A stretch of 63,481 nt of DNA, the filler included, from Perkinsus chesapeaki ATCC PRA-425 (lineage: Eukaryota > Protista > Perkinsozoa): the NCBI GenBank assembly GCA_013115145.1. It is 13 parts of 13 records of this genome, joined end to end, with 100 filler letters (N's around TTAATTAATTAA, not from the genome) between each part and the next. Parts side by side here need not be neighbours in the genome. Positions count along the whole stretch, not along the records: positions 58,752 to 62,141 come from JAAPAO010001416.1; 12 more parts are not named here. One strand, 5' to 3'. Both the position numbers and the translations under genes were made by a program. This document shows positions 1,273 through 63,481 of this stretch, piece by piece. A model generated the notes under the pieces. The model had not been told where the DNA came from, made no database searches, and saw only the letters and a list, made by a program, of their open reading frames with translations. Each line of letters starts with the position of its first letter. Position 1 is the stretch's first letter.

Positions 1273-2839
1273 TTGATGGCGTCGTTGTATTTATAGGTAG
1301 GCAGCAGAAGGGAATCGCCATTGTTGCATAGTTCATGACCTAGTACCAGTAAACCGTTAGCTTCTGGTCCATGTAGACTATCAGTAGTTAGATGCATGCC
1401 ATAGTTAGCGAAGTGGTCAACGACTTTTTTAATATCTTCAAGTCGTCCTCCTAAGTAAAGAAAATCGTCCATGTAGCTTACCAATACACCAGAACAGGAA
1501 CCCAGCCGCTCAAACTCGCCGATAGCATGAGCAATAATAATTTCCAGAACTTGCGGATTAGTGGAGTTACCATCGCTCATGTAAGTGTAAGTCCAGTTTT
1601 TGTTCTTGTAGTTGATTTGGCTCAGTAGTTGGAGGTTACGTCCCAGCTTTATAGCCCGGTAGGCGTCACGTATGTCCATAGCGTGAGCAGTGACTGAAGA
1701 TCTATACTTGTTGATGATGCGAGGGATCTTGCTCTGACAGTCCTTGATAGGGTACTTGTTGATAGCCTTCTTGACCAGATCATTAGTTCTAATAGTGGGC
1801 TGGATAGGACGGACGCGTTTCCTACCTGCCCGTGGATACCAGTTAGTGGTGTAGTTGTTAACGTCGTCGGGCGCAGTAGTTTGTAGTTTACCTTCGGTGA
1901 TTAGAGCATCAATCCGTTCTTCTGCTTGTCGTCGTTCATCAGCTGAGGCCTTCATGAGGAAGTAGTGGGTAGGAGGTACAGGTTTTGGTTGATTGTCCAA
2001 CGCTAGTTGAAGTAATTGGTCGCTGTAGTCAACATAGTACTCCTTGTTGCCTTGGTCGTTAAGCAGGACGCCAATGGTGCACCATTCGTTGTTGTAGATG
2101 GTCTTAAGTAGTTGGTAACCTTCAGGTGGTTGTGGGAACGAAGGTGGGGAGTTTCCCAGTATGTCAATGTTGTAGGATATATCATGTGTCTCATTGGTGG
2201 TATTGCCTTTTAGGGCAGAGATGTGATGACCTTCTCGTGAGCATTCGTCCAATGACATTGGTCTATTGGACATTGGACCAATGTAGTTGTTGCCGATGTT
2301 GGAGTTCGTGGAGTGGATACTGTAGACTCCTCAGTAGGCTTAGACGTTGTGCTTGTTGAGGCCGGAGACGTAGGTGTGAGGTTTGACGACTGATATTTAT
2401 GTAGTGTGTGCGAGCTACATAAATATCTAGATGCTTGTGTTGGGGTATCATTGATAGTGAGTAGTAGACCGTCGGCGTTGAAGTTGAGCGCGTCCATACC
2501 GAGTAGTCCATCCGAATGGAGTAATAGTCCATCGTTGATGATAGCTGGGGACCATGTAAGGGTAGACACCTTGCCGTTGTCATCGCAGACAGGGAATTTG
2601 ATCTTAAGTTGGTAGAGTGAAGTCATAGAACCTGCAGCAGTAGCAGTATCGAAGGATGTTTTGCTTGGTATAAGTTGACCATCTGGATAGTGTTGTAGAA
2701 GAGCGGTGGCAAGCTTCCAAGAAACGACGGACTTGGTGCATCCACTGGATGCACTGGATGTGGCCGACACTGGATGCCATCCAGTGTCGGCCACAATTGA
2801 GAAGTTATGATCTGCACAGAAAACAGATCGGAGCACCAT
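1273..2839 (-). mobile_element. LTR retrotransposon pol fragment: aspartic protease + reverse transcriptase, frameshifted
   Basis: ORF 2210-2839 has IVADTG...CTKSVVS and DGLLGMDAL (retropepsin motifs). The overlapping ORF in another frame has MDIRDAYRAI, VSYMDDFLYLG and VLGH (RT motifs). It runs into the spacer at 1272. Confidence 0.85.
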
Positions 2840-3918: not shown

Positions 3919-4620
3919 CTAAATGGGGCATCCCGAATCTGCATACTTCGCGATTCCTTCTGGCAGTTTGGTAGTAAGAACCTCCTTATCAAGGTCGATA
4001 TCAAGAGTTAGGAAGTTATCATCAAGCTGACCTTCAGAGTCTTGGATCATCTTCCTACACTGTATACCACTTAACTTAACCTCCAGACCACCTGACACTA
4101 TCGTCGTCGTAGAATCGCAAGTGTAGAGAATCTTCGGAGATATTTCATCCTTCTGTCTAACAAGTCGAGCTCGCCTCTCTGTGACTATGATGCTGTAAAT
4201 ATAGTCAACAAAGCGTCCATCAGTCGACAGGTAACACGTTTGGGGCCATACATATACATAGAATGTAGCCCCTTTGGGTAGTTGGGCGACAAGATATGTC
4301 TTGTCATACGTAGCCTTCATTGTCAAGAACTTGCCGTCAAGTAGACCATTAGAGTCTTTTATCATCGTTGTACATAATACACCTTGAACATCAATCGCTA
4401 TACCATCACCAACATCCTTATCAACGTACACACACGTGTAGACAGTTGCCGGGGAGTCTGAATCTACCTGCCTGAAGAAGTTGACTTTACCATCATTTTG
4501 GAATTCAATTCTGTTGATAAATTGTGAGTATTGCCCAGTCTCGGGCGTGAATGTGAGGTCAAGATACGCCTCGCAGCAGATGAGCAGCCCCAGGATTGTA
4601 GTAATTCTCATAAGAGTCAT
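3919..4620 (-). CDS. Secreted protein with two internal beta-rich repeats of about 100 aa, copy 1
   Basis: 233-aa ORF with signal peptide MRITTILGLLICCEA. Repeat 1 (F.RQ.DSDSP...YTC...G..C..MIKDSNGLLD.KFL) aligns to repeat 2 (LVRQKDEISP..LYTC...GIQC..MIQDSEGQLDDNFL). A GT..AG intron near the 3' end is possible, so the C-terminus is uncertain. Confidence 0.75.
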   Translation of the reverse strand: MTLMRITTILGLLICCEAYLDLTFTPETGQYSQFINRIEFQNDGKVNFFRQVDSDSPATVYTCVYVDKDVGDGIAIDVQGVLCTTMIKDSNGLLDGKFLTMKATYDKTYLVAQLPKGATFYVYVWPQTCYLSTDGRFVDYIYSIIVTERRARLVRQKDEISPKILYTCDSTTTIVSGGLEVKLSGIQCRKMIQDSEGQLDDNFLTLDIDLDKEVLTTKLPEGIAKYADSGCPI

Positions 4621-4949
4621 ACTATTCGGTTGAAAATAACTGAAATCAATGACATTCCTCCGTTGGCTATACCCCCTATTTAAGACACCATTCTAGACTC
4701 ATGCAATGTCGTACTATCACGGATTCTGGTGAGACCAAGAGGACCGTGAGTGACAGTTGAGCACATTATACTTGCTGCTTGAAGTATCAGAGCGTGTGTC
4801 ACAAGCTGCGTGACACAAGGATTCGTCCCTGCATTGTAATTTACCATAAGTCAGATATGGCATCCTGGCCTTCAGAGAACACACCTTAACTTCCGACTGG
4901 TTCACAAGTTGTGTCGGCCCTTACAATTACACTGGCGATTCATCCCTTA

Positions 4950-6621: not shown

Positions 6622-7326
6622 CTAAATGGGGCATCCCGAATCTGTATACTTGGCGATACCTTTGCCTTCTGGCAGTTTGGTAGTAAGAACCCCTTTACCA
6701 AGGTCGATTTCAAAAGTTAGGAAGTTATCGTCAAGCTGACCTTCAGAGTCTTGGATCATCTTCCTACACTGTATACCACTTAACTTAACCTCCAGACCAC
6801 CTGACACTATTGTCGTCGTAGAATCGCAAGTGTAAAGAATCTTCGGAGATACTTCATCCTTCTGTCTAACAAGTCGAGCTCGCCTCTCCATGACTATGAT
6901 ACTGCCAATATAGTCAACAAAACGTTCGTCTGTCGACAGGTAACACGTTTGGGGCCATACATACACATAAAGTATAATCCCTTTGGGTAGTTGGGCGACA
7001 AGATATGTCTTGTCATTCGTAGCCTTCATTTCCAAGAACTTTTCGTCAAGTAAACCATTAGAGTCTTTTATCATCCTTGTACATAATACGCCTTGAATGG
7101 TAATCTTAATACCATCAAGAACAGTGTCACTCTTATACACACACGTGTAGATGGTCGTCGGGGAATCTGCATCTACCTGCCTGAAGAACTTGACTTGAGC
7201 ATCATCGCGGAATTCAATTCTGTCGATAAATTGTGAGTATTGCCCAGTCTCGGGGGTGAATGTGATGTTAAAGGCCTCGCAGCAGATGAGCAGCCCCAGG
7301 ATTGTAGTAATTCTCATAAGATTCAT
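6622..7326 (-). CDS. Secreted protein with two internal beta-rich repeats, copy 2
   Basis: 234-aa ORF, clear paralog of 3919-4620 with the same signal peptide. Confidence 0.75.
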   Translation of the reverse strand: MNLMRITTILGLLICCEAFNITFTPETGQYSQFIDRIEFRDDAQVKFFRQVDADSPTTIYTCVYKSDTVLDGIKITIQGVLCTRMIKDSNGLLDEKFLEMKATNDKTYLVAQLPKGIILYVYVWPQTCYLSTDERFVDYIGSIIVMERRARLVRQKDEVSPKILYTCDSTTTIVSGGLEVKLSGIQCRKMIQDSEGQLDDNFLTFEIDLGKGVLTTKLPEGKGIAKYTDSGCPI

Positions 7327-8059
7327 ACTATTCGGTTGAAAATAACTAAAATCAATGACATTCCCCCATTGGCTATACCCTTACTCAAGACCCCACTCTA
7401 GAGTTTTGCAGGATCATAACAATCGTACGAACACTGACTGCTGCGACCATTGAGACTGTGAATACTAGTGGGGCAACTCGTGCTGATGCTGTGATGAGGT
7501 ATATCTGGATAGTAGCTTATCACTGAAGCTTGAAGTGCTAGAGCTGGTGTCACAAGCTGCGTGACGTAAAGATTTGTCTTAGATACTAATATGATTCCAG
7601 GGGCAATATCATCCACCGGACGTCAAGAACTTCACGCTGCCTCTTTGATTAGTTTGGTAGAGATGAGAAGTTCAGCGCTTGTCATTGAGAACAGCAAATA
7701 ATTGACTAGAGACTGAACACGAGAGGTGTCATTGCTCCAGGGACCCTCGCGAATTAGCTGCCTTGAAGGAGTGAGCCTGTCTACACGAAGCCCTACGCTG
7801 CACCACGCATCCTCCAGTGAAGTTTTTCGAAGAAGGAACCGACTACCTGGATCGAATTGCATGATTATAGCTGATACCCCTTCCGCACTACGAGGCATGG
7901 CCTGATCGATATCTGGGCATTTGAAAGAACCATTAGTTCCGCATGGGACATGGGTGGTGACACCACCGTGGTGTCACACCAGTGGTATACTAGCCATCAA
8001 ATCCCGGCCTGATGTACCGAAACTGTTGACTCACGAACTGCGTATTCATTGACATTCCT

Positions 8060-15019: not shown

Positions 15020-16831
15020 ATGAGACTTCTAGCTTCCTTTGAGGCTCTACTATTGCTCCTATTCCCCCTCACGAGGGTAGTTCATGCAAAGCTGTCACTG
15101 CCGAGTAAAAATAAAAAGAAATGTAGTGTACATTCAAGATGGACTCGGCGCTTATATGATTGGTTCAGGGGAGCACAAAGTGATAGCTGCTGCCGCGGGT
15201 GTCAATTATGACTATTACGCTAACGGCAACGGTAAAGTGAAGTCAAATGGCAAGTCCGATTGTTATGGAAAATGGGAAGATGCCCAGATCTACGGAGCCC
15301 GACAGAAGAAGATTAAACAGTAGGGCTACTCCCGAATCTTTCCGGTGTGGTAGGATGTCTTGTCAGGTTCTGCGTACGGCTCCATGAGAGATACCAGGAT
15401 GATGCTGGATATGAGACTATCCCACTCGATAATAGTAGGCTAACCGCGGGTCAGTTTCAACAGCGACAAGTTTAGAGATGCAATGTATTCTCGATCCAAA
15501 CGATGATGGTAACGATCATGGCCGGAAGGACCGCGATTGGCTGTAAGACTTCAATCTTGTCTTGCTGCGAGTTTATTGTGTTCAGATGCTACCAGAGTAA
15601 CCCTTCTCATATAGCCTTGCCTCCACATGGTCCATCGCTTAATGAGACTTGCCGATCTGATAGTCCCCAGTTCAATGCCCTCTTCTGTATCAGTCCTAGG
15701 CTTTTTCTTGCGTCGGACCATGTTATCTTAGGGTACCCCACCGATAGTCCACCAGAGTGGTGTCCCTACAACTGGTATGAGAAGAAACAAGTCTGCTGGT
15801 GTATTCCCGGATTCTATCGGGATTCTCCTTATGACACGACACTGCAGAAGAGGTACACTCCCACGTCGAGCATCGAATCATCGCGGCAGTCTCTTTCCTT
15901 GTTACGCTCTTAGGGGGTGTCCAGAAAAGGAGGTTTTTATTGTGCCGAAGTTCATCACGCGAAGCGCATGGTTGGACCTCCAAACAACTACCACTACAAC
16001 AACCACAACAACGAGTACAACGACAACGACCACCACAACTACTACTACGACGACAACTACGACGACCACGACCACTACGACAAGCACGACTACTACCAAG
16101 CCCAGTACCAGCAGTACAACAACGCGGTCAACTACCGCTTCGGTCTCGAAGACGACAACAGGACGACGATGCATCTGTCCTGATCGCAAGCCTCTACCGT
16201 CAGTGTATCCCACAACTGCTCCCCGCACCACTAGCAGACCTACTGGTGACAAGACCGTTGCACGTGATGGAGATTCTCGTGTTGGTGCTCCCGCTACAAC
16301 ACCGGTGAACATTGAGACAGGTAGGGTTTTTCTCTTTTTTAAGCACTGAACTCGAGTTTTCAGACCCTTTAGACTGCGGGGAGCATGGAGCTTGGTCTGC
16401 AGTGGCTTTGGCTTGCATTTGTGGAGAAGGATGGATAACAGACGAAGCTGATGAGTAATTGACTTCCTGCTCTGCGACTTTAACCTTGATATGTTTCAGG
16501 TTCCCTTGCAGCTCCAAGGTTGGCGAAGTAAGGCCTATTCGATATATAGAGGCGACTAACTTACTTCTGACTTTCAGTCGAAGCTCTCTTCCAGCAAGAA
16601 GGAGTCAGGAGGCGGGGGCGTGGCACTCGCCATCATTTTAGTTATTCTTGTTATCTGTGCGGGAGCTGTGATAGCGTAGGTTACACGCCATAGGTCGGTG
16701 TCTCTATGATTGAGTGTTTCAGGTGGAGGTATTTCCGTTTGAGGGGAATGCCATATTCCTGGGCCTTCTGGAAGCTTCCTAGGTTCTCGTCGCATTCGCG
16801 CTCGATGAGTTTCGCACCTGGAAGGTTTTAA
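15020..16831 (+). CDS. Type I membrane mucin-like protein: signal peptide, Cys-rich domain, poly-Thr stalk, EGF-like module, TM, short tail (copy 1)
   Basis: Signal MRLLASFEALLLLLFPLTRVVHA; exons YGKWEDAQIYGARQKKIKQ, CILDPNDDGNDHGRKDRDW, PEWCPYNWYEKKQVCWCIPGFYRDSP; Thr run; DCGEHGAWSAVALACICGEGW; TM GVALAIILVILVICAGAVIA; ends GRF* at 16831. Confidence 0.85.
15984..16100 (+). repeat. (ACN)n threonine-codon repeat (mucin stalk)
   Basis: Run of ACA/ACT/ACC/ACG codons. Confidence 0.95.
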
Positions 16832-17457: not shown

Positions 17458-18432
17458 ATGCAAATATTCCCGCATAGGTTTGCGCTGGTGGCTAGCCTTC
17501 TATTACTGCGGTTCTGTCGCGGTCTGACGCTGCCGAGCAAAGCTAAAAAAAGATGTGAGAACGTGCTCCAAAAACTGAGGAGGGGTTGCTACTGGTCTTC
17601 TTATGCTTAGGGGAACCCAAAGTGCTGGCTGCCTCGGCGGGTGTCGATTATAACCACTTTGCCAATGGCAATGGTGTGGTGAGACACAATGGTAAATCTG
17701 ACTGCTATGGAAAATGGAAGGACGCGGAAATCTACGGAGCCCGACAGAAGAAGATAAAACAGTGGGTTTATGACGATTCATAGCAACATGACGACCTCTC
17801 TGTACAGGTACTGTGTGCGGCTCCATGAAAAGCACCAGGATGATGCTGGCTACACTGGAATTCCCAGAGAGAAAAGTGAGTGTTCAAATTAACAGCTCAA
17901 AGAGTGACCCACGGACTAATGTAGATATGCATTGCATACTTGACCCGAATGATGATGGCAACGATCACGGGCGGAAGGACCGTGATTGGTTGTAGGCGAT
18001 CCTAGTGTGAGTATTAGAGATATTCTCCTACTCAGGTGCTACCCCAGAAAGACCTCCTATGTTGCTCTACCGCCATATGGTCCGCCTCTTAATGAAAGTT
18101 GTCGACCTGATAGTCCTCAGTTCAATGCTCTTTTCTGTACTACGAAGCCACTGATGGTAAGTCATGTTCATCTTACCTTTTCTTAGGGTACCCCACTGAC
18201 AGTCCACCGGAATGGTGCCACTACAACTGGTACGAAAAGAGGCAGGTCTGCTGGTGTATTCCCGGCTACTATAGAGATTCCCCTCATGACACGACTCTAC
18301 ATAAAAGGTGCACCGATTGGCCAGAACAAACTGAATCCCTGTTGTTTCTTAGGGGATGCCCTAAGAAAGAGATATTTATAGTGCCGAAATTCGTGCGATG
18401 GAGCGAATGGGTAGACCTCCAGACAACCACGA

Positions 18433-18466
<34 letters not shown>

Positions 18467-19240
18467 AACAACAACCACTACTACAACTACAACTACTAAA
18501 ACCACATCCACAACCACAACTACAACCACAACTACGACCTCGACTACAACGCCCACTTCGACCACCACGACTGTCCCTCAAACGTCCACACAGTTTACTA
18601 TCATCGGTCCTTCTCCGACTAGGTGCACTTGCTCGCCGCGTGGGTCTGCTGTCAAACCCGCATCGTCAACAGCCACTTCTGACACGCGCCAAGGTGACCT
18701 TGGTGCCGTAAATGGAAGAAGTGGTTCTCCGACAGCAACTACTGGGCGGCCACCAAAAGGTGAAGTACTTTGAATCCCGAGTATTATGAGCATCTCTTCA
18801 GGCCTCGTTGACTGTGGAGAGCATGGAGCCTGGTCGGCTCTAAAAGGGTTCTGCATATGCAATGACGGCTCGGAAACCCTGAGGTTAGTTTTACTTTTTT
18901 GCAGTTTGTGTACGTTTAAATGTAGGCCTTGCAAAGAAATCAATTCCGATTCCGGCAGTCCAGTAAGCTATTGCATCTAGCGCAAAGGGATTATCGATCC
19001 AATTTTCCACCGTAGGGCTCAACGATTTCCTCGAAGGACGATTCCCCGGGCAACGCAGGTGTTGGTCTACTCATTTTGCTGGCGATTGTTGTACTTACGC
19101 CGGCGTGCTACTTCATGTGAGTTCTTATCGCTGCGTGGATTTAGACCGATGTCGCCTTTGTCAGTTGGAGACGTATCGCTTCGCACGGTGTAGCCTCTCT
19201 ACGGTCGGGGTCTAGCAGCTTCATGCCTCAGCGATTCTGA
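17458..19240 (+). CDS. Type I membrane mucin-like protein, tandem paralog (copy 2)
   Basis: Signal MQIFPHRFALVASLLLLRFCRG; matching exon series (YGKWKDAEIYGARQKKIKQ; CILDPNDDGNDHGRKDRDW; PEWCHYNWYEKRQVCWCIPGYYRDSP); Thr run; DCGEHGAWSALKGFCICNDG; TM GVGLLILLAIVVLTPACYFI; ends QRF* at 19240. Confidence 0.85.
18423..18570 (+). repeat. (ACN)n threonine-codon repeat (mucin stalk)
   Basis: Run of ACT/ACA/ACC codons, including an (ACT)n stretch. Confidence 0.95.
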
Positions 19241-30460: not shown

Positions 30461-30573
30461 TCACTTAGTTGTTCCATATCCCACTTACTTTTGTGGAGCA
30501 GCTTCTAAAACTAATTTTTTGTTCGAAGTCGAGCTGCAAAGAAGATATCCACATCCTATAGGACAGAGATAGT

Positions 30574-32178
30574 ATGATACAGCTGCACATGATCTACTGG
30601 ATGCTATTGCTCTTCGGCGCATCCGCTGATGTCCACACTGCGGTTGAGCTTTTGGAGAAAGCGTTGACTGGAAAGGTGCAAACCTCCAAGATTCCTGACC
30701 CTTTCAACAGACGGTTCGGGGAATCTCGAGGATACATTCCAGCAGCAATGGTGAACGTCTCTTCGGCGGATGATACCAAGAAAGCGCTAGATATCTGTTT
30801 GGCCAATAAAGCACCAGTCGCTCTTAGGAGCAGCGTGGGTCATTCTTATATTGGCCAGTCAACAGTTAACAATGGTATCGTCATCAACTTTGACAATCTA
30901 AGGGAGTTCACTGTCATAAAGGAGGATGATGGATCCTACAGTGCTCGACTTGGTGCGGGCCTAGAGCTCCTGGAAGTATATTCACGACTGGCCCGTCACG
31001 ATCCTCCTTTAGGCATCGCTGCTGGTGATTGCCGATCTGTTGGTATTGCAGGGCTAACTCTAGGTGGCGGTTTGGGTGTATCTTCTGCAAAGTATGGCGT
31101 CACTGTTGATCGCCTTAAGTCTGCTGAGGTTGTGATATACAACAAGCCATGTGGAAGATTTGAAGTAGTTGAAGCTACTGGATATAATGAACACTCGGAC
31201 CTGTTCTTCGCAATCCGTGGCGGTATGGGTGGCAACTATGGTGCTGTTGTTTCCCTCACCTTCTCAACTTTCCCGGCTGATAAGGTTCTGGTTATGAAAA
31301 CTGGCGCCTTGAAGCCGAAGGATGTAACGCAGACCGATTTGATGAGGAAGTTCATGGCGTACATGCACTCGGGATCAGCCGGCCCCGAGCTTTTTGGTTC
31401 TGGGCAATTCTCGAATGGAGCTATCGAGTTCCAGGCGCAATGCTTTTGCGACCGTGGCTGTGTACACTGTAACAAGCTACTGGACGGCCTCCAAAAGGCA
31501 GTGGAAATTGTACATCCATGGCGGGCTGAGCAAGATTACGGTGAAGCCATGTGGATGTGGATGGGCTGCAGCGAGTACTACCCACCAGGGGGCCTTCGAG
31601 GCTGCACTGAGCGACAGCTACTCGATTCGATGGAGAAGTGCTGGAGACTCGGCAATAAGTACAAGGGTCAGATATACCAAAGCAAGTCCGTGTTCTTCCC
31701 GAAGAATATTCCCCTCGAGATTCTGAGATTCATGGAGACTGCGACAACGGATGAAGCTTGCCACCCCGGACCTTGCACCATCCAACTATATTTTCACGGT
31801 CATGCCGCACTTTCCCAGCCGCGTGATTGCAATGAGGCTGGTGGAAGCTGTACAGCGTTCGACCATCGATCTGCGGGATGGTGGTCCCAAATGCTAATCA
31901 ACTGGTCGGAAAACGAACCTGATGTGAGCAGCAAGCTACGCTGGTTGAAGAGCCTCTACCAGAACGTATTTCCGCGCTCCTCAAAGACAGCATACCAGAA
32001 TCTGATTGATATTGACCTAGCGGATGGTCGCAAATGGGTCGCTCAGTACTTCCCTAATGCCGCTACATATCCAAGGTTACAAAAAGTCAAGTGTCGCTAT
32101 AATGCTATTAACATGTTTACATTCCCAGCCATCGACAAAATGGTTGTGGAGATAAGCGATGGCATTTGCAGAGCATGA
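30574..32178 (+). CDS. Secreted berberine-bridge-enzyme-like FAD-linked oxidase, intronless
   Basis: 534-aa ORF; signal MIYWMLLLFGASA; ALRSSVGHSYIGQS (FAD-binding His); IAAGDCRSVGIAGLTLGGGLG (Cys of bicovalent FAD); DLFFAIRGGMGGNYGAV; C-terminal BBE motif AYQNLID...YFPNAATYPRLQKVKCRYNAINMF. Confidence 0.92.
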   Translation: MIQLHMIYWMLLLFGASADVHTAVELLEKALTGKVQTSKIPDPFNRRFGESRGYIPAAMVNVSSADDTKKALDICLANKAPVALRSSVGHSYIGQSTVNNGIVINFDNLREFTVIKEDDGSYSARLGAGLELLEVYSRLARHDPPLGIAAGDCRSVGIAGLTLGGGLGVSSAKYGVTVDRLKSAEVVIYNKPCGRFEVVEATGYNEHSDLFFAIRGGMGGNYGAVVSLTFSTFPADKVLVMKTGALKPKDVTQTDLMRKFMAYMHSGSAGPELFGSGQFSNGAIEFQAQCFCDRGCVHCNKLLDGLQKAVEIVHPWRAEQDYGEAMWMWMGCSEYYPPGGLRGCTERQLLDSMEKCWRLGNKYKGQIYQSKSVFFPKNIPLEILRFMETATTDEACHPGPCTIQLYFHGHAALSQPRDCNEAGGSCTAFDHRSAGWWSQMLINWSENEPDVSSKLRWLKSLYQNVFPRSSKTAYQNLIDIDLADGRKWVAQYFPNAATYPRLQKVKCRYNAINMFTFPAIDKMVVEISDGICRA

Positions 32179-33464: not shown

Positions 33465-34254
33465 TCGATCGAACGAACGGCAAAGAACTGGAAAAACTTC
33501 CTCAATCGCGCGCCACGACGCCCACTCACCCGCACAAATCACACAAAGACCGAAAAAGCACTCTGTGTTATAATATCGGCTCCTGCGCCTGAGCATCAAT
33601 GTCCGACTGGTCTATGGGATCCTTTTCGGGTAGCTAAACCCAAGATGTATGATTAGGCTCGTTGCCTTCCGCAAAGATTCTGCTCCCCCGATCGTCGTGG
33701 CCCGAATGGATTTATTGCACGCATGCGCACTGGTGCGCGCACGTACATTTTGGCGCCCTCGAATCGAGAGTAACCAGCCACGCGCGAGAAGCAGCCACCT
33801 CAATGTCACACCCGGACGTAGCTTTCCCCCCTAGAAAAAAATGACTATTCGCGTCGCCTTTCACGCTATGCCGATTTTGTCCTCTCGAAAGTTCCGTGGC
33901 GGGGTGTCTTATCTTGCGCGCTAGGAGACAAATTTTGTGCCATTCTAGCGCGCTATAGAGACCCTCCCAGTTCCACGAGGGATTCTGTACCTTATATCCT
34001 CACGATTGGCTTTTATGTTGCTGGCGATGTTCCTCATTATAGCGATTTCTTGGGAAGGACTTAGAGAACTGTTAGGAATGCTATCGCCGTTATCCGAATT
34101 TGATCGAGTTTCCATCGTGAGTCGGCATGGGGTGGCGCTAAGGATAGTTCTCAGTTGGTTTTATTGGTGTAGTTCCGTTATGAGATCTCGCAGAGCTTCC
34201 AGTACTTTATCCTCCGATCGCACGGGTACCGCGGAATGCCTTGAGGAACCCATT

Positions 34255-34555
34255 ATGAGTAAGCCATTGGATTTAGAAGATACCGCATCCTCGTCAGCTG
34301 AGGAGTTCCCTGTCGAGAGCAAGAAGTCTTTCTGGAGCACCATTCGACATGGCGGTTGGAAAGTTCAAGTCGATGCGGATGGCTACAAGCCTTTCTGGTA
34401 TGAGGCTACCCTTTGTTGCACCTTTACCTTTCTGTTGGCTTTCAAGCCTTCCGAGCCCCACCTGACAACCTATCTGCGTGAGACCAAGGGCTTCACTGAT
34501 CAGGAGATCAACTCTGAGATCTATCCGTGGTCCACGTATGCCTGCATCCCTTTCC
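34255..34555 (+). CDS. Reduced folate/thiamine carrier (SLC19 family) paralog, 5' fragment cut by spacer
   Basis: MSKPLD...FWYEATLCCTFTFLLAFKPSEPHLTTYLRETKGFTDQEINSEIYPWSTYACIPF. Confidence 0.85.
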
Positions 34556-54282: not shown

Positions 54283-55342
54283 TCCTTCACCAACATTAAG
54301 TCCACGAGATGCTGTCGAGTTGGTCCTCGAAGTGGTACGAAGTGGAGGTTTCTCTTCACAATTACAAAAAACCCGTTTGGTTAGTGGTAAACACGAGAAT
54401 GTATTTGAATCTATGATTATCAAGGATGGTGATGAATCTATTAAGATTGATAACTCTCATGAGGCTAAAGTACTTGGTTTAATCTATGATAAGAGATCTT
54501 CTTTGGTACGGTATCCGAAGGTATTTTCCCAACTTTTGCGAGCAAGTGAAGAAATGACAAGACGACAAGTTCTTTCAAGAATTTCCCAACTTCGGGATCC
54601 ATTGACAGTCCGTCCTGTGACAAGTTTTGTGGTTAACTTCATGAAGCAGAAGATTGGTGAGAGTACGCTTTCTTGGGATGCCCCTTTTACTAATGAAGAT
54701 CAACAAATTTGGCATCGTCGACTTCAAGTTTTGGAAGAAATTGATAGAATAGAACCAGCGGAGGCTACAGGAAACTTGAAGGAAGGCGGTTTACTTGTTA
54801 TTTGTTCGGATGCATCCACAACTGGTTATGCTTGGTTGGCTTTTTATGGTACATTGGAAACTCGTTTGGATTATCTTGGTGGTTATTATGGAGTATGGAA
54901 GTCAAAACATTATCTTAAACATATCAATTATCTGGAATTATTAGCAGCAGTAAAGGCCACTAGTTTTACTGATATGAATTATGTTGATACATTGAAACCA
55001 AAGGCAGTTTATCACCTGGTGGATTCACAGTCCTGTTATAGACAGTTATTATCTGGTCGTGTTCATGAACAAGCAGACAGTGCGGCCCTTTGTCAACGTC
55101 AACTCAATTATCATTCTGAGGTGGTAACGGGTGCTAATTGGCAACAATATATGGTGGTACATATTCCTTCAGGGCTCAATCCAGCCGACACTGGTTCCCG
55201 ATTGACTTCTTTGGTGGATTATTTCAATAAACTGACTGGTGCTGAGACAATGGAAAATTTGGTTGGTTACTTGGCACCTAAATATCTATCTACTGAGGTT
55301 TGTGTACGTATAAGAGAAGCCGTCGAGTCGACGACTCTCACT
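54283..55342 (+). mobile_element. Bel/Pao-like LTR retrotransposon pol fragment (RT end + RNase H); whole contig is one open frame
   Basis: EAKVLGLIYD; TRRQVLSRISQLRDPL; ICSDASTTGYAW; HINYLELLAAV; HLVDSQ; HIPSGLNPADTGSR. Confidence 0.85.
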
Positions 55343-55534
55343 NNNNNNNNNNNNNNNNNNNNNNNNNNNNNNNNNNNNNNNNNNNNTTAATTAATTAANN
55401 NNNNNNNNNNNNNNNNNNNNNNNNNNNNNNNNNNNNNNNNNNCACTTTCAACTCGTACACCGAAAGCTCGTACACTTTCACTTCGTACACACCCCCACTT
55501 TTAACCCGTACACCGTCATTTCGTACACTCTGCT

Positions 55535-55587
55535 AAAATTTTTAAGGCAAGTCGCGGAGCCGCTCCGCGACTTGCCTTAAAAATTTT
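55535..55587. repeat. Perfect palindrome: 26-bp arms with 1-nt loop
   Basis: AAAATTTTTAAGGCAAGTCGCGGAGC-C-GCTCCGCGACTTGCCTTAAAAATTTT, followed by a second hairpin CGCCGGC-TTC-GCCGGCG. Confidence 0.97.
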
Positions 55588-55662
55588 CGCGCCGGCTTCG
55601 CCGGCGAGTCGCATACCTTGAGGAGATTGCCTTCCCTCGCTTAACCGTGAAGGACGGCCTCG

Positions 55663-55736
55663 CGGTCATGCCAAGGATTGAACTCGCGACCTCACGATTC
55701 GCAGGCATCAAGTCTAACCCCTACGCCACATTGACC
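55663..55736 (-). pseudogene. tRNA pseudogene or tRNA-derived SINE head
   Basis: GGTCAATG-TGGCGTAGGGGTTAG...CTGCGAA...GAGGTC-GCGAGTTCAATCCTTGG-CATGACC-G. tRNA length, A/B boxes and acceptor GGTCA/TGACC are present; the anticodon stem is broken. Confidence 0.5.
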
Positions 55737-55788
55737 ACGAATAAAAATTTGTTCAACGACCGCCTTTCGACTCTCCGAAAGGGACATT

Positions 55789-56136
55789 ATGTGCTTCGCT
55801 CCGCCAAGTTTGCAGCGCACGAAACACGTTGCAGCGCACGTGTTCATATTGTTGGAATTACATAACCAAGCTCAAATTGATTTGCAACGAGCTAAGCTGG
55901 GTGACAAGCAGCGAGATGTAAGTTTCAAAAGGCGAGAGTGTGAGCGTGACTTAAACAGCTTATTCTCAAACTATTTTTCTTATGGCATCGGCCGGTTGTC
56001 GGTACCTCAATACCAGCGCTTTATGGCCCTCTGTGCTGCGCGCGTAGCTCGAGCTCGAGATGCCTATACCAAGCAGAAAGCCACCAAATCCAAGCGGGCC
56101 AGAACAACAGGTGCCCCTCTCAGTCTAGATGACTGA
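55789..56136 (+). CDS. Short helical basic ORF inside the foldback-like element (possibly a gene fragment)
   Basis: 115-aa ORF ending LCAARVARARDAYTKQKATKSKRARTTGAPLSLDD; no recognised domain. Confidence 0.3.
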   Translation: MCFAPPSLQRTKHVAAHVFILLELHNQAQIDLQRAKLGDKQRDVSFKRRECERDLNSLFSNYFSYGIGRLSVPQYQRFMALCAARVARARDAYTKQKATKSKRARTTGAPLSLDD

Positions 56137-56459
56137 GTTGACTCTAATACACAGCCTTTCATACTGAACCAACCACTCTTTTACTCTTCTGACTAATAGT
56201 TGTCGCCCCTATTTTAATCACTGAGGTATAATCGGCATCTTATGTGAGAATGAAAATGTGTTCCCCTCATTTTGATTATTTGCGTTGCCGAGTGTTTGCT
56301 GGGGTATAAGATAGTCGTCAACCAATACTAATCGGCTACAGGATAGCAGGTGCAAAAAATAGTAAATCACTCCTTGCCAAAAACCATATTTCAGGTTTAA
56401 AACCCAAATGCATTGTAACTTGCAATGCATTTGGTAGTAGTTACAAATTGTAAGGTTAC

Positions 56460-56529
56460 CTTAATTAGGGATCGAACCGGCAGCCTTTCGTAGAACATCA
56501 TGACATCCTAACGTCCACACCATGTCAGC
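56460..56529 (-). pseudogene. tRNA-like relic or SINE head
   Basis: Minus strand GCTGACATGGTGTGGACGTTAGGATG...GGCTGCCGGTTCGATCCCTAATT; B-box and tRNA-like spacing, but poor stems. Confidence 0.3.
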
Positions 56530-56578
56530 TTCTAACTTACGAAATAGTAATGAAAGATATAAGTTTCGCAGCAGCAAA

Positions 56579-56810
56579 GTGTACGAAACCTGAATGTGTA
56601 CGACTTGATAGTGTACGGGTATTCGGTGTACGGGTTTTTTGTGTACGGGTTTTATGTGTACGATTTTTTTGTGTACGGGTATTGGGTGTACGAGTTTTAT
56701 GTGTACGAATTGAAGGTGTACGAATTAACGATGTACGGATCCGAGGGGTGTACGAGTATTCAGTGTACGGGTGGTGAACGAAGTGAAAGTGTACGAGTTT
56801 TCGGTGTACG
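56579..56810. repeat. 15-bp-period tandem array with GTGTACG core (15 cores)
   Basis: Cores at 56579, 56596, 56611, 56626, 56641, 56656, 56671, 56686, 56701, 56716, 56731 (ATGTACG), 56748, 56763, 56789 and 56804. Confidence 0.95.
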
Positions 56811-57176
56811 AGACATGATACACCCGTGTATCGATAACGAAGGGGAGCGCCCCTATTATCGTGTCAGAAACGTATGGGCCAAGGCTAGTGTAGAATCTTG
56901 TTTCAAAGATTTCCCACACCTTCCCCAATGCACTTATGACGTCAGGTCATGGGAGCCTCCCATTGGGAGGGCTCTTCCTTCGTTAGAACGATACACGGGA
57001 GTTTACGCGTCGTGGACGCAGTTTTCTGCGTACCGAAACCACTCATCACTATGCACGGAAGATGAAGAGTGGCTGTATATATATACTTTTTCACCGTTAC
57101 TACTACAATTGTTGCGCTCATACTATCGTTTCGTACATGTCTCATTTCCCTTTGACGTAGTTCCAATTTCCGAACC

Positions 57177-57398
57177 ATGCCAGCCGTTCCTAAGAAGCCC
57201 TGCCAGTACTGTGGAAAATCAATTTCCATTAAGCGTATGGCAGCACATGTAAGACGCTGCGTTCACGCGCCACAGTTGCCCAAACCGGCAGCTAAGCTTC
57301 CACAATGTATTTGCCCCATTTGTGGGGTAACCACCAACAGGAAAAGGCTGACACGTCATCAGCGCTCATCAAGATTCATCAAGATATGCGGGTTATGA
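57177..57398 (+). CDS. Small protein with two zinc-finger-like motifs
   Basis: CQYCGKSISIKRMAAHVRRC (C2HC) and CPICGVTTNRKRLTRHQRS (the final ligand appears lost). Confidence 0.5.
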   Translation: MPAVPKKPCQYCGKSISIKRMAAHVRRCVHAPQLPKPAAKLPQCICPICGVTTNRKRLTRHQRSSRFIKICGL

Positions 57399-58535
57399 TG
57401 ACCCTTGGAAAGTTGTTGACCTTTCCTTTTGTAGACCGAGTGAATTGAATTNNNNNNNNNNNNNNNNNNNNNNNNNNNNNNNNNNNNNNNNNNNNTTAAT
57501 TAATTAANNNNNNNNNNNNNNNNNNNNNNNNNNNNNNNNNNNNNNNNNNNNTGGTCGTGGAAGCTATTGTAAAGTGCGCAGCTAAGCCTGGAGACAAAAC
57601 TCATTGTGTCGTAATTGTCCCCCGCTAAAAATCCACATCCTAATCCAAACACGACTGTTCGGCGTGGCTCATAAAATCCGTGTGCAATTTGCGAAGCCAA
57701 GTCTCATTCAGTGTGAGCGAATTAGCTGTTTGAGGAAGTCGTAGGAGTCGGGGTGATATAGTAACCCAGCCCATCATCCAAGGCAGCGTAAACTCTGACT
57801 TGTCCCTGTGGAGTTCGCTATCCAACAGAGATGTTCGCAACGCTCAAGCGACAGTTCGTGGCTAATAGCGAGTACCAAGCAGTATACTATACGGTTGGTG
57901 AAGAAATTACTCATGCTGTGAGAGCGAAGTCCAGTAGCCGGCTCGCAGTAGAGCGCGGATCAAATGGAATACCGTCGACATGAGGTACCAATGCATGTCT
58001 AGACCAAACGCACTGCATGATGTGGTGAGCAGTGCTCATTCAGCACCTATTTTAGACTTATGTTGGGTAAATAGTGTGTCCCCTGAACACAGTCCCTCGA
58101 GTTTGGCAGACGAGTTGCATTCAAGCTTGACCGTCGCTCTAAACAGAAGGCCTCTTTGGAAAACCTGCATTGTCCTTAATCGTAGTTTTTGGAAGTTGAT
58201 AACGCTAAGGTTCTTGGGGGACTCTGGCAGCTTCTGTGACCTCTTTCTCCCAGGTCCCCGGGTACGTGGTTACACAGCTTGCAGGTTATACTTCAGTCAC
58301 AAGTAGAGATGTTCGGAGGCGGTAAACTGAAGTTCAATGAGAAATCCTCGTTGGAAAGGCTTTCCCAAGTTGAGGATAACTTTGAGCGGTCCGGAATATG
58401 CAGCGAACTCTAGCCGGATTACTCAAAGTAAACGATCATTACGTTATTGATGATACGACTAAAACAAAACAAGACAGACCTTTGAATGAATTGGCACTCA
58501 GCCAAAATGTAGAGAAACGGAAGTAAGAAAACTTA

Positions 58536-58751: not shown

Positions 58752-61700
58752 CCTGAGCTCTCGAATGGGGTTTGGAATCTTGTTCGGTCCGTGTGGTCTG
58801 AATGGTTGCCTATCTCCTCTAGTGTCCGAGTCTCGGTTACCGGGTTTCGGTGGTATCGAGCTTCTTCACATGGTACTGGTATTAGTCTTTCTCTTTGTCG
58901 ATGACTTGGCTCTCTCGGGCCCTACATTACCAACGGTTGTGAAGTTCAAGCTCTTGTTAATACTACTTCTGCGCGTTGGTTTTGACGCTCAACAGCGAAA
59001 GGTTTATGCCCTAGCGGTCGACTGCCGTAAAGAAGAACTGAAGAAAGCCCTCGAAAGTTGTGGTATCGATCTCTCCATCGCCGAGGAGGGTGTGATCCTT
59101 GGTGTGAAGATTGCCTACAGAGGGGATTTTTTGGTTCTGAACTGCGATCGCAGTAGGCGCCTCTCGGTTGTTATCGGATTTGTAAGGATGGTAGCTTCTG
59201 GTGAGGCCTTCACGAAGCGCCTTGGGTTCAAAGCTGCGGGTTGTCTGGCATTTGATCCAGCCCGCCTACATCCTATCTCCCGCGCATGCGCGGATGGTGT
59301 CCGATCACTGTTGGGCCGTTGTTTCTCGCAGCTTGGTTGGTCAGATCCACTTGACGTCTCGAGGCTGAGTGAGTCCTCACAAGCTGCTTGGAAATGTCTC
59401 GTAGATTGGATGCAAAATATCTGCACCCACGATTCTGCAGTTTGTTCACATCGGTCTCCAGTTAGATTTGCTGATGCTCCTGAGCTAAAAATCCGGGCGT
59501 ACTGTGATGCCTCTCTTACCGGTGGAGGCTTCATTGCCTTCGTCGACGATGTCGAGCTCTTCTCGGAAGCATTTCTATGGCGTCGGGCTGAGCGCAGGTG
59601 GCATTCCAACCGGCGTGAACTTTGTGTCCTCTTACGGTTGCTGCAGAATCTATGTGACTTCCTTCATTACCGGCGTCGGATTGTTCCGCAAGGAAACCCT
59701 CAAGGAGTGCACATCACCATCTTCTGCGACAACGCGGCATGCGTGGCCTGGTCGCAGGACAGTGAGCGGGGTGACTTGATTGAGCGCTCCAAGGGCGTCG
59801 AACGGCGGGCAATTGCACGCTTGGTATCTGGTCTTCATGACGAGCTCCTGGAGTTGCGCCACTTATGTAAACCTCCGACAAGTAATCCAAGTCCATCCCC
59901 CTACACCGTCGAGATTTCGCACCTCCCGGGATGCTCTAATGACAAGGCCGATACTTTGTCGAGGATATATGATCGAAGGACTGAAGCTGGTAAATCCCTG
60001 GCAGATTGCTTAGCGGATGCCACTGGTATACTGGACGAGAGGGCCCGCGACCCAACTCGTATGGGTTGTGGCTGGGACAAGCTCAACTCTGATAAGGATC
60101 CACTGGTGGCTGACTGGCACCCGTCGTCGCTTGAGAAGACCGACGAGAAAGAGGTCTCTGATAAGTGCTGCTTCCTTGCGGATTGGTCAACTGTTCACTC
60201 AGACTCGTGGTCGGTTAATCTGTGTGCTCTGGCAGTCTGTCACGGAGCTCCACCAGCGGATGTCGTGTACCATCTGCAAGATTCTGAAAAGCTTTGGAAA
60301 CCATTGATGGAGTGCGAGTCGCTCGTGGATCGTGCTAGTCGTTACAGCTACGATCTTGACGATGCGCTACACCTTCTTTGGTTTGTGAAAACCATTATCT
60401 ACATGCTCAAGGCTAATGTTAAGGAAACCTTGCACGAGTTTAGACAACCATCTTATGATGGGACGGCTGTTCGCTACATTGCTGCGCGTAGCTGCCAATT
60501 GTCTGATCCAAGGTACACCTTGTATTTGTCTGGTGCTGAAACTCTGGTATGCTGTGGGCCTCTGTATTTGTCGTCGTCCAAGGAGCTAGGGTCGTTAGTC
60601 TCCGATTCTGAGAGGATAGCTAGCTACCCTCCCACCGTTGTTTACCGGTCCGGTACTGCATCTGGCCGTGTTGTTCTGAAGCCTGTCATACCGCGTGGTT
60701 CATCTTGTGCACGTTTTCGCTCCCTCGTAATCAGAGTTGCTCACAGGAGCTGCGTGCATGGAGGGGCGGATGGCACTTGTGCGCAAATCGTGGACTTCCA
60801 TCTCCCCGCTGGTTTGGCCTCATGCCGAGATTTCATCAAGCAGTGTCTTATCTGCCAAATCTCCCGCGCCAAGAGAGTATGGGTCAATCCTATGTCTCTA
60901 GGAGTTCGCAGCTCTGATGGTAGTACGCCAGCGGATCTCCTTCGATGTCCTCCATACTGGCGTGTTGGGGTAGATTTTTTCTGTCTCGGTATGCGGTGCA
61001 AGGTTCTGACTTGTACTTGCCTCATGAGCGGTCATGTTACTATGGTCCGTTGTGATGAGGATGCCAGAAGCAGCGTCAAGGCGTTGCGCCGTATCCAGTT
61101 ATTGAGAGGTGGATTGCGAGAAGTATACACTGATACGGCGTCCTATTTCATGTGTTCCGCGTTCACTCGTTCGATGCAGAAGGAGCTTGGAGCCGCAGTT
61201 TATCCTCTCAATGCAAGATCGCCTCATGAGGGTGGTAAGTATGAAAAACTGCATGACCTAGCAGCCCGTAAGCTTCGAGTCCTCCTGCGAGACTGTGTTG
61301 GTAAGGTTGCATCCAAGACCGATGAGGAAGTGGACGAGCTGTTACTACGTTGTTGTCATCTACTCAACTCTAGGCCGATTGGAAGCTTCTACTTCAACCG
61401 TGATGGTGTCAAGTCTCCCGTATCACCAAATGTTCTAGCTTTTGGTTATGAGCATCATACTGGTGCGCAGTTTGGTGTGGAGTCTGCCCCTTGTTCCCCA
61501 GGGAGGGACCAGAGAGCAGTTAGAGACGCCTTCGAACACTACCACTGGCAAAGGATGAAGGAGAAGTCTATCACTGCCTGCAGAAGTAAGTGCCCTAAGA
61601 ACTCGAATGCTTTACAGCTTGAGGTTGGTGATACTGTGCTGGTGTATACTCCGCCCAACCGCAAGCTGGCATTCCACTGGCGTCTCGCACATGTAGCGGC

Positions 61701-62091
61701 GATTCGAACCAACCGCAGTATTCAAGTCGTGTACCCGAACGATCAACGTCTATGCTCTGAGAACATCTACAACGTGGTGAAGGTCGACCATGAGGTGGCG
61801 GCTGACTGTGTGCTTCCAGAAGAACGAGACTTCCGATGGGATTGTGAACGTGAGGACGATGCTCTACCTTCTCGTATTGGCATGTGTATCGAGGTCGCGC
61901 TGAAGGTTCGTGGCGAGAAGACTAAGAGATGGTATCCAGCAAAGGTATCTCATGTCTGGGCATCTGGTCACGTTACTGTCAACTGGTTCGATGGTGATCC
62001 TCCAGAACGGCTATGGCTAGAAGCTGAAGATTGGTACATTCTAGATGGAGAACCCATCGAAGAGGGGCGTGATGCGTCGCACTGCGCATAA
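58752..62091 (+). mobile_element. LTR retrotransposon pol, uninterrupted: RT (partial), RNase H, integrase, SH3-like domain, Tudor-like domain
   Basis: RMGFGILFGPCGL and LFVDDL (RT); YCDASLTGGGF, SNRREL, IFCDN, HLPGCSNDKADTLSR (RNase H); HRSCVH...CLIC, VGVDFF, VYTDTA, GGKYEKLH (HHCC + DDE integrase); LEVGDTVLV...WRLAHV; WYPAKVSHV...VTVNWFDG. Order RT-RH-IN. Confidence 0.92.
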
Positions 62092-62599
62092 ATTGTGCAA
62101 TATCTTTGGGCGAGCGATACTTGAAGAGATATCTAATGCATNNNNNNNNNNNNNNNNNNNNNNNNNNNNNNNNNNNNNNNNNNNNTTAATTAATTAANNN
62201 NNNNNNNNNNNNNNNNNNNNNNNNNNNNNNNNNNNNNNNNNTCTGAGCGGAGCGTGTAATGAGTCCATGCCTTTGCAAAGAAGAGATTTCTTATTTTGCG
62301 TTGTAAGTTGAGTTCAGCACGAAAAACGGGACGTACTCAATAGGTTTAGGTTATGTGTTTCGCGTAGCGGTACAATAGTAACATATAGGGAAGACGTTCG
62401 GGGAGATAATTAGGCGTAGGCAGAGTAGGGAGTCGCGCGTTGCGGCTCACTCCGTGGCAACGCGCTCCAAGCCAAGTGTAAAATCTTGCTCGTAAACGTT
62501 AGACTCACAATATCAGACAATCGCTTGAATTGGTGAGCGCGTAGTACTTTGAGCGCATGGTGATTTCCATTGGAACGGTCGAAATTTATCTTTTGAAAA

Positions 62600-63481
62600 A
62601 TGCCAGCTCTTCCTGGTAATAAGGTTAAAGGCGCATTGCTCGTCAGCGGGTTCAGAATTAGGAGTGTCGACGATGTGTCAGCGGATGATGAGGGGCCTAA
62701 TATTCGCAAAACACGTTTGGTGGCACGGTTCTTGCATGGGAAGAAAAGTGACGAACGTCCGGTACGATTCACGCGGTTCACGAGCAGAGATCGAGGAGCA
62801 AGACAAGGTCTAGAGATAAGCTATGATAGATTTCTGGTATTCCAGTGCTTAGTGAGCAATAGCGTGTTTATAATATTGACGGATAGCCAACAAGAAACGG
62901 CGCACTTGCTGAAATTCAGGGACGTTGCGATAGGAGGGGTGTATGCCATTGCTGAGCCTATGTTTCGCGGAGTCATGGGAGACGGAGTGAAGATCATTGA
63001 CACGAAGGAGTACATGATTCCAAGTGTGTATGACAATGAGAGGCTGGTGAATCCTGCGACACTGCCAACGAATGTGGGGTTTAAAGCATTTGGCATGGAG
63101 AACGTTAAAATACGTTTCGGCCCGGTATGGATTGAAGACAGGGTGTGTTCCGGAGAGACTTGTGATAGGCAGTATTCAAGCAGCTTAGATTGTCTGTGTC
63201 TAGCACGTGGTAGACGCAACAGCTGGGTGTTAAGATGTATCGTGTGTTCGCCGGAATTACCTGGTGGAGAGTGTGAGATGCAAAGCTATGCCTTCTCGAA
63301 GTTATTCCTACCTCCGGGTATACTAGAAAACCCCTTAAAGGAGGAAGATATTGACGTGTTCGAGCTAAGAGACTCCATGGATCGTATTGCAGAGCGAGTG
63401 AATGGTACAGATGGTGTGCCTTTAGCCGAACGGGGCTGGACTATTTATGGATGGTACAAACCAGTTATGAGCGATCTTCGA
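62600..63481 (+). CDS. Intronless ORF of at least 294 codons running off the window end (absent from the ORF track); possible OB-fold/zinc protein
   Basis: ATG at 62600 (in-frame TGA just upstream) and no stop to 63481: MPALPGNKVKG...RFLVFQCLVSNSVFIILTD...VAIGGVYAIAEP...VCSGETCDRQYSSSLDCLC...SWVLRC...SYAFSKLF...GWTIYGWYKP. Confidence 0.75.
   Translation, partial: MPALPGNKVKGALLVSGFRIRSVDDVSADDEGPNIRKTRLVARFLHGKKSDERPVRFTRFTSRDRGARQGLEISYDRFLVFQCLVSNSVFIILTDSQQETAHLLKFRDVAIGGVYAIAEPMFRGVMGDGVKIIDTKEYMIPSVYDNERLVNPATLPTNVGFKAFGMENVKIRFGPVWIEDRVCSGETCDRQYSSSLDCLCLARGRRNSWVLRCIVCSPELPGGECEMQSYAFSKLFLPPGILENPLKEEDIDVFELRDSMDRIAERVNGTDGVPLAERGWTIYGWYKPVMSDLR

Follow-up and report, generated by a model that had tools for sequence, protein, structure and literature searches.

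We analysed a 63,481-nucleotide stretch of DNA from the shellfish parasite Perkinsus chesapeaki ATCC PRA-425 (the whole stretch is called the window here), which carries a retrotransposon Pol polyprotein whose integrase ends in a second barrel of predicted Tudor type. Thirteen short contigs, with N-flanked stop linkers between them, make up the window, and for this reason neighbouring contigs are uninformative on the element, whose own contig covers 58752-62141. The open reading frame (ORF), its domains and the start of the 3' long terminal repeat (LTR) are as follows.

58753..62091 (+): Pol ORF, 1112 codons without stop or frameshift, 5'-truncated at the contig edge
58753..59400 (+): C-terminal half of the reverse transcriptase (RT) and connection region, with FVDD at residues 48-51; right boundary approximate
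59485..59960 (+): RNase H, with D252, E289, D326 and D400; boundaries approximate
60715..60870 (+): integrase H2C2 zinc finger, with H664, H669, C698 and C701
60960..61440 (+): integrase catalytic core, with D741, D794 and E831; boundaries approximate
61618..61788 (+): first SH3-like barrel, the usual integrase C-terminal domain, DUF5641-like, residues 956-1012
61789..61854 (+): linker between the barrels, acidic and length-variable, from sequence comparison
61855..62046 (+): second barrel, the Tudor-type module, residues 1035-1098, from profile, fold model and structure searches
62059..62069 (+): polypurine tract directly 5' of the LTR, from sequence
62070..62141 (+): start of the 3' LTR, beginning with TG, cut at the contig edge and containing Pol's last six codons and stop

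The module is fused in frame behind a normal SH3 domain. An earlier reading made from the sequence alone (the sequence-only reading) had pointed to a peptide in the integrase frame, and it is found there, with I1042 starting at 61876 of the ORF at 58753-62091 (+). The H2C2 finger, the D741/D794/E831 triad and the first barrel all lie upstream, and the module stands at the integrase C-terminus, as that reading had it. The H2C2 finger matches Pfam PF17921 at E=3e-5 (24.5 bits, under the 25.5 cut-off). The catalytic core has rve Pfam matches in relatives, and the family profile matches the Ty3 and foamy virus integrases. The first barrel reaches Pfam DUF5641 at E=0.12 and, in a profile match, the C-terminal domains of Bel/Pao elements at E=2.4e-4; nothing was found for it among PDB sequences at E<=10. 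RT_RNaseH Pfam matches in relatives are weak. A long region between RNase H and the zinc finger (residues 403-654, ~59960-60715) is partly conserved in the family and has no Pfam match.

We then compared the module with known folds. A family profile of the module, built from 15 sequences and searched against 177,635 PDB sequences, matched the RDM15 Tudor domain (7DE9) at E=2.6e-5 and KDM4B at E=2.5e-4. The AlphaFold2 model of the module (predicted local distance difference test, pLDDT, 87) is a five-stranded SH3-type beta-barrel with no C-terminal helix, can be superimposed on Tudor structures, and returns 7DE9 as the first-ranked match in both structure searches. The module is therefore predicted to fold as a five-stranded barrel closest to RDM15. 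Profile and structure searches thus bear out the proposal of a Tudor/Agenet-type fold as opposed to a generic SH3/KOW fold or a classical chromodomain. A chromodomain has three strands and a C-terminal helix, an arrangement that differs from the Perkinsus module; none appears among the 50 best structural matches listed, although that absence excludes nothing, and Pfam Chromo has no match in the window proteins, the relatives or the modules. On its own, the window's module reached no Pfam family, including Tudor/Agenet at the curated cut-off. The relatives' modules gave weak matches to Agenet (5/15) and PTM_DIR17_Tudor (3/15), with a best E of 4e-4. ESM Atlas gave leads only for the module, with scores of <=0.88 and Tudor/Agenet clusters included, and a viral structure library gave no match at E<=0.001. 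A shuffle control (28.6 bits for the module vs 8.5 for the best of 2000 shuffles) and the module hidden Markov model scores across the family are partly circular and carry little weight. A single-sequence fold prediction of both barrels reached a pLDDT of 40 and was not used.

Next, we looked at the distribution of the module. The last 224 residues, searched against 1.84 billion representative sequences, gave 50 matches: 15 element proteins, one of them the window's own, and 35 others. From several searches we assembled a family set of 18 non-redundant proteins, each covering the SH3 domain to its end, leaving out the truncated P0003, P0005, P0058 and P0059 and the cluster-mates P0069-P0074. 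The module is complete in 15 of the 18, cut short in one (P0049) and missing in two that form one clade (P0019 and P0040), so conservation across the family, a check that the sequence-only reading had proposed, is confirmed. Module carriers may be over-represented because the query contained the module. In another clade (P0004, P0029 and P0057), a further, strongly diverged copy scoring only 1-8 bits stands in front, giving tandem modules behind the SH3 domain (P0004 1330-1475, P0029 760-906 and P0057 1920-2058). All 12 named family proteins, redundant cluster-mates not counted, come from Perkinsus olseni, P. chesapeaki and P. marinus, and a metagenome scan yielded no confirmed relative among 29 candidate stretches. 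Compared with a sister subfamily (~86% DNA identity), the window's module shows, in 56 codons, 19 silent changes and 6 replacements, a ratio of replacement to silent rates (dN/dS) of 0.057 (p=2e-8). The module is under purifying selection. Across the family it is more variable than the first barrel (mean identity 26% vs 38%). It is a real Tudor-fold appendage.

The cage that would make such a barrel a methyl-lysine reader is less complete than the sequence-only reading had it. In RDM15 the cage is formed by W616, Y623 and Y641, D643 and D645 hold the monomethyl-ammonium group, and E647 and Q654 contact H3R2 (PMC8184781; bioRxiv 2024.10.15.618488; both in their accessible parts). By alignment to 7DE9, L1050, Y1061 and W1078 of the window copy correspond to the three cage residues, and D1080, D1082, E1085 and E1092 to D643, D645, E647 and Q654. 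The claimed cage of four aromatic residues is not borne out, as only Y1061 and W1078 occupy cage sites; W1060, one residue ahead of the cage tyrosine, is probably part of the core, and F1079 is not conserved (aromatic in 2/15 family members). An aromatic residue stands at the second wall and at the third in 15/15 members and at the first in 7/15, so that 7/15 have all three. The rim positions D1080, D1082 and E1085 are acidic in 11, 7 and 9 of the 15. The window copy belongs to a four-member group with Leu at the first wall and a longer, basic hairpin, inserted in the window copy at residues 1051-1059. The net charge of this hairpin is +4 in the window copy, positive in 11/15 members and neutral or acidic in 4/15, and the whole module of the window copy is at -3. 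The close relatives P0026, P0028 and P0056 have the complete RDM15 set of three cage aromatics and both aspartates, and the last module of P0057 is aromatic at all three cage positions with a tyrosine at the D645 position.

Since the first wall is Leu, the sub-lineage of the window copy probably binds weakly or without methyl-lysine specificity, and we consider it doubtful that the window copy reads a methyl-lysine; judged by their residues, P0026, P0028 and P0056 are likelier true readers. An incomplete cage lowers the case for a methyl-lysine reader, not that for a Tudor fold. Loss of the first wall has a parallel in plant group II chromodomains, in which the first cage residue is missing and association with heterochromatin is kept (PMC3350952, accessible part).

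The 3' end identifies the type of element. The TG start at 62070, the purine tract in front of it and unlike upstream flanks in other copies together mark an LTR element: in contigs from public sequencing runs, three to four records per run match from 62070 on but are unlike upstream of it. The LTR-start segment has a single match within the window. In run X1, depth from 62070 on is ~2.3x the internal depth, which is 928, with junction contigs at 56-109; these ratios hint at several near-identical copies of the element, depth being no copy number. Most of the public runs may be the window's own source, and for that reason they confirm the structure and not the distribution.

Lineage profiles place the element nearer to Bel/Pao than to Gypsy, with scores of 73 vs 59 for RT, 88 vs 63 for the connection/RNase H region and 195 vs 111 for integrase, based on 6-7 Bel/Pao and 3 Gypsy references that were all picked by similarity to the Perkinsus family. 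Scored singly, the best reference for the RNase H region is a Gypsy protein. In the RT tree, the Perkinsus rows fall outside the seven Bel/Pao rows, and the three Gypsy rows, the only references of that lineage, share an unresolved fork with the Perkinsus rows and are set off from this fork by a branch of length 2.9; with three groups and no true root, sisterhood is not readable from this tree. The best RT matches in the PDB do not decide between the lineages, nor is the superfamily settled by ESM Atlas, where the RT region falls into generic RT clusters. The nucleocapsid part of Bel/Pao Gag carries Cys-His knuckles, which we found in 6/6 Bel/Pao references and in 0/5 Perkinsus N-termini; the N-terminal regions of the Perkinsus family and the references show no profile similarity. 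No Pao-specific Pfam family was reached at cut-off, with DUF5641 as given above and Peptidase_A17 at E=0.037 in one relative only. Belpaoviridae are described as metazoan, with a single Gag-Pol ORF, the order protease, RT, RNase H, integrase, and an LTR with a polypurine tract (PMC8742986). The window shows the order RT, RNase H, integrase and an LTR with its tract upstream, and P0009 and P0057 are full-length single ORFs that fit the Bel/Pao order, their protease being assigned by motif only. A primer-binding site for tRNA-Arg or tRNA-Gly, another Bel/Pao feature, would lie in the 5' part of the element that the contig edge cuts off. The accessible part of PMC3118150 adds nothing on Bel/Pao in protists. 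Given the mixed RT and RNase H results, the missing Gag knuckles and the metazoan description of Bel/Pao, we describe the element as leaning, apparently, to Bel/Pao and do not assign it to that family.

The window holds sequence of two other retroelements. At 54284-55342 (+) lies a second, more typical Bel/Pao-type Pol fragment with Peptidase_A17 above cut-off (E=1.2e-8), and therefore the genome seems to hold more than one kind of Bel/Pao-type element. A third retroelement at 1275-2330 (-) has an RT with YMDD (RVT_1, E=1.6e-5) on a very long tree branch; upstream, an ORF in another frame that overlaps this RT (2213-2908, -) has no Pfam match.

The landing sites of retroelements are set by reader domains on their integrases. 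In the literature we found chromodomains, carried by Ty3/Gypsy elements, and a single Tudor on a Gypsy element, that of Gypsy-10_Ec32 from Ectocarpus, reported as the first retrotransposon with a C-terminal Tudor and with a Tribonema minus homologue (PMC12477816, accessible part). Novelty thus stands in part: no report was found for the Perkinsus lineage, but a Tudor retrotransposon is already published. The Ectocarpus paper was the sole case found in the literature on Tudor domains with integrases or retrotransposons, and, judging by record listings and abstracts, no paper on this family was found in that on Perkinsus retrotransposons; most subscription journals and Repbase lay outside the coverage of both searches. 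As far as the accessible text describes it, Gypsy-10_Ec32 is likewise an LTR retrotransposon with a C-terminal Tudor on Pol, a chromatin reader being proposed in both cases. Its Tudor is aligned to cd20401, and three Perkinsus family members match PTM_DIR17_Tudor weakly. However, it is a Ty3/Gypsy element of stramenopiles, whereas the Perkinsus element is from an alveolate and leans to Bel/Pao in RT, RNase H region and integrase. The two modules may share an origin.

Chromoviruses (MAGGY, Tf1 and plant group II) also carry a Royal-family barrel behind the integrase C-terminal domain, and erosion of the cage occurs in them too, in the group II chromodomains (PMC3350952, accessible part). Unlike theirs, the putative Perkinsus reader is a predicted five-stranded Tudor whose model lacks the C-terminal helix, the element lineage differs, and the module's nearest structural relative, RDM15, reads H3K4me1 and not H3K9me. 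The Tudors of RDM15/PDS5C and MSH6 (7DE9) give the best profile and structure match, and counterparts of RDM15 Y623, Y641, D643, D645 and E647 are present. The module differs from RDM15 in the Leu at W616, in its longer and basic first hairpin, and in being fused to an integrase and not to a cohesin or repair protein (RDM15 as described in the accessible sources). The closest sequence relatives outside the element family are stramenopile tandem Tudor/Agenet-repeat proteins (five named records, from Sphacelaria, Laminaria, Phaeothamnion, Hondaea and Tetraparma), which share turn and strand motifs with the module and have many repeats each with all three cage aromatics in place (94-100% at each position). 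The module is absent from all six complete Bel/Pao references, and among chromatin-domain fusions a published survey, in its accessible part, mentions chiefly Chromo and PHD (bioRxiv 2021.11.30.470311). A Tudor on a Bel/Pao-leaning alveolate element would add one more solution, in another lineage and probably of independent origin, and would speak for Royal-family readers having been captured convergently. To our knowledge, no closer relative of dinoflagellates than Perkinsus keeps normal nucleosomes, and the targets of an integrase reader would report on its little-studied chromatin. Furthermore, the cage variation within the family makes the targeting question testable from genomes alone. 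As a separate observation, P0010-P0015 and other matches are large stramenopile Tudor/Agenet-repeat proteins with up to ~20 matched stretches and without annotated function.

On balance, we lean towards the extra, conserved, predicted Tudor barrel having come from a cellular Tudor protein and tethering the integration complex to nucleosomes, which are canonical in Perkinsus (PMC6723414, accessible part). Once proteolysis had released the integrase, the barrel would hang from it by the acidic linker, which would be flexible. Two parts of the barrel would dock on nucleosomes: the pocket, acidic and half aromatic, in which Y1061, W1078, D1080, D1082 and E1085 would bind an unmethylated or sparsely methylated basic residue of a histone tail, and the basic hairpin, which may touch DNA. 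By analogy with chromodomains in chromoviruses, docking could bias insertion toward some chromatin class. Several results weigh against tethering. The pocket of the window copy is incomplete, with two of RDM15's three cage aromatics (L/Y/W), and the first wall is lost in 8/15 members, a loss that in PDS5B is read as loss of H3K4me1 binding (bioRxiv 2025.05.08.652912, accessible part). Additionally, a profile of the whole C-terminal third reached no Tudor in the PDB, Tudors being reached only by the module-only profile. A more specific proposal, which we put forward tentatively and with more doubt than confidence, is that an undescribed Bel/Pao-related non-animal lineage independently captured an RDM15/MSH6-type Tudor and uses it to direct insertion to a state of lysine methylation, which might be a gene-body mark similar to H3K4me1 and not heterochromatin. 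If so, the sub-lineages with a full cage, a Leu-walled cage, a tandem copy or a lost module would make up a natural series of retargeted integrases.

The barrel might instead be Tudor-derived and now bind nucleic acid, its basic hairpin gripping target DNA, complementary DNA ends or RNA without histone reading. The SH3 domains of integrases are DNA binders, the module's structural neighbours include nucleic-acid-associated barrels, and both the lost first wall and the mostly positive hairpin fit this proposal. We consider it rather unlikely: the hairpin is neutral or acidic in part of the family, the module of the window copy as a whole is negative, the acidic DGD/E rim of the pocket is retained, and a histone reader is the top match by sequence and structure. 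Unlikely, too, is binding to a non-histone partner, such as a methylated or basic motif of a host factor or a part of the integrase, by which the barrel would regulate or recruit the integrase. Tudor-like domains often bind methyl-arginine peptides (PMC5906684, accessible part), removal of the chromodomain raises the activity of Tf1 integrase and lowers its specificity (PMC3350952, accessible part), and variable cage walls fit changing partners; yet no partner is indicated in any analysis run here, and the closest solved structure reads histone H3.

It is very improbable that the module arose by duplication of the SH3 domain in the same integrase, with a Tudor likeness that is a general barrel likeness. 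The two are tandem SH3-fold barrels whose profiles align weakly (E=0.015 and E=0.11), and the further module copy in the P0004, P0029 and P0057 clade indicates that duplication occurs in the family. However, the module matches cellular Tudor repeats with 98% probability (E=8e-15) and its own SH3 domain with 3%, a comparison tilted toward Tudor by the choice of repeats, which were selected for resembling the module, and in the independent PDB search the module reaches Tudors and the first barrel reaches nothing. These profile comparisons largely refute duplication. Such cellular Tudor repeats keep the first cage aromatic in 94% of 283. Finally, a chance read-through or assembly chimera without function, as might be suspected in a string of short linker-joined contigs for a tail that reaches no Pfam family, is refuted by its presence across the family in three named Perkinsus species and by the dN/dS, and the module is contiguous with the integrase in public-run contigs, most of which may be the window's source; the chance of such an artefact is negligible.

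Elsewhere in the window, two ordinary host genes encode a FAD-binding, berberine-bridge-type oxidase (30562-32175, +) and a folate-carrier fragment (33949-34554, +). The next contig after the element has an open frame of at least 295 codons (62597-63481, +) with a Cys-rich second half and no Pfam match. Tandem paralogous ORFs at 3922-4692 (-), without Pfam match, and 6625-7380 (-) have a hydrophobic N-terminal stretch, and two similar ORFs at 15732-16346 (+) and 18114-18770 (+) have long threonine runs and are mucin-like. At 55443-57451, an array of a 15-bp unit (56594-56737), whose core heptamer recurs inverted near 55455-55530, looks like the subterminal repeats of a small DNA transposon.
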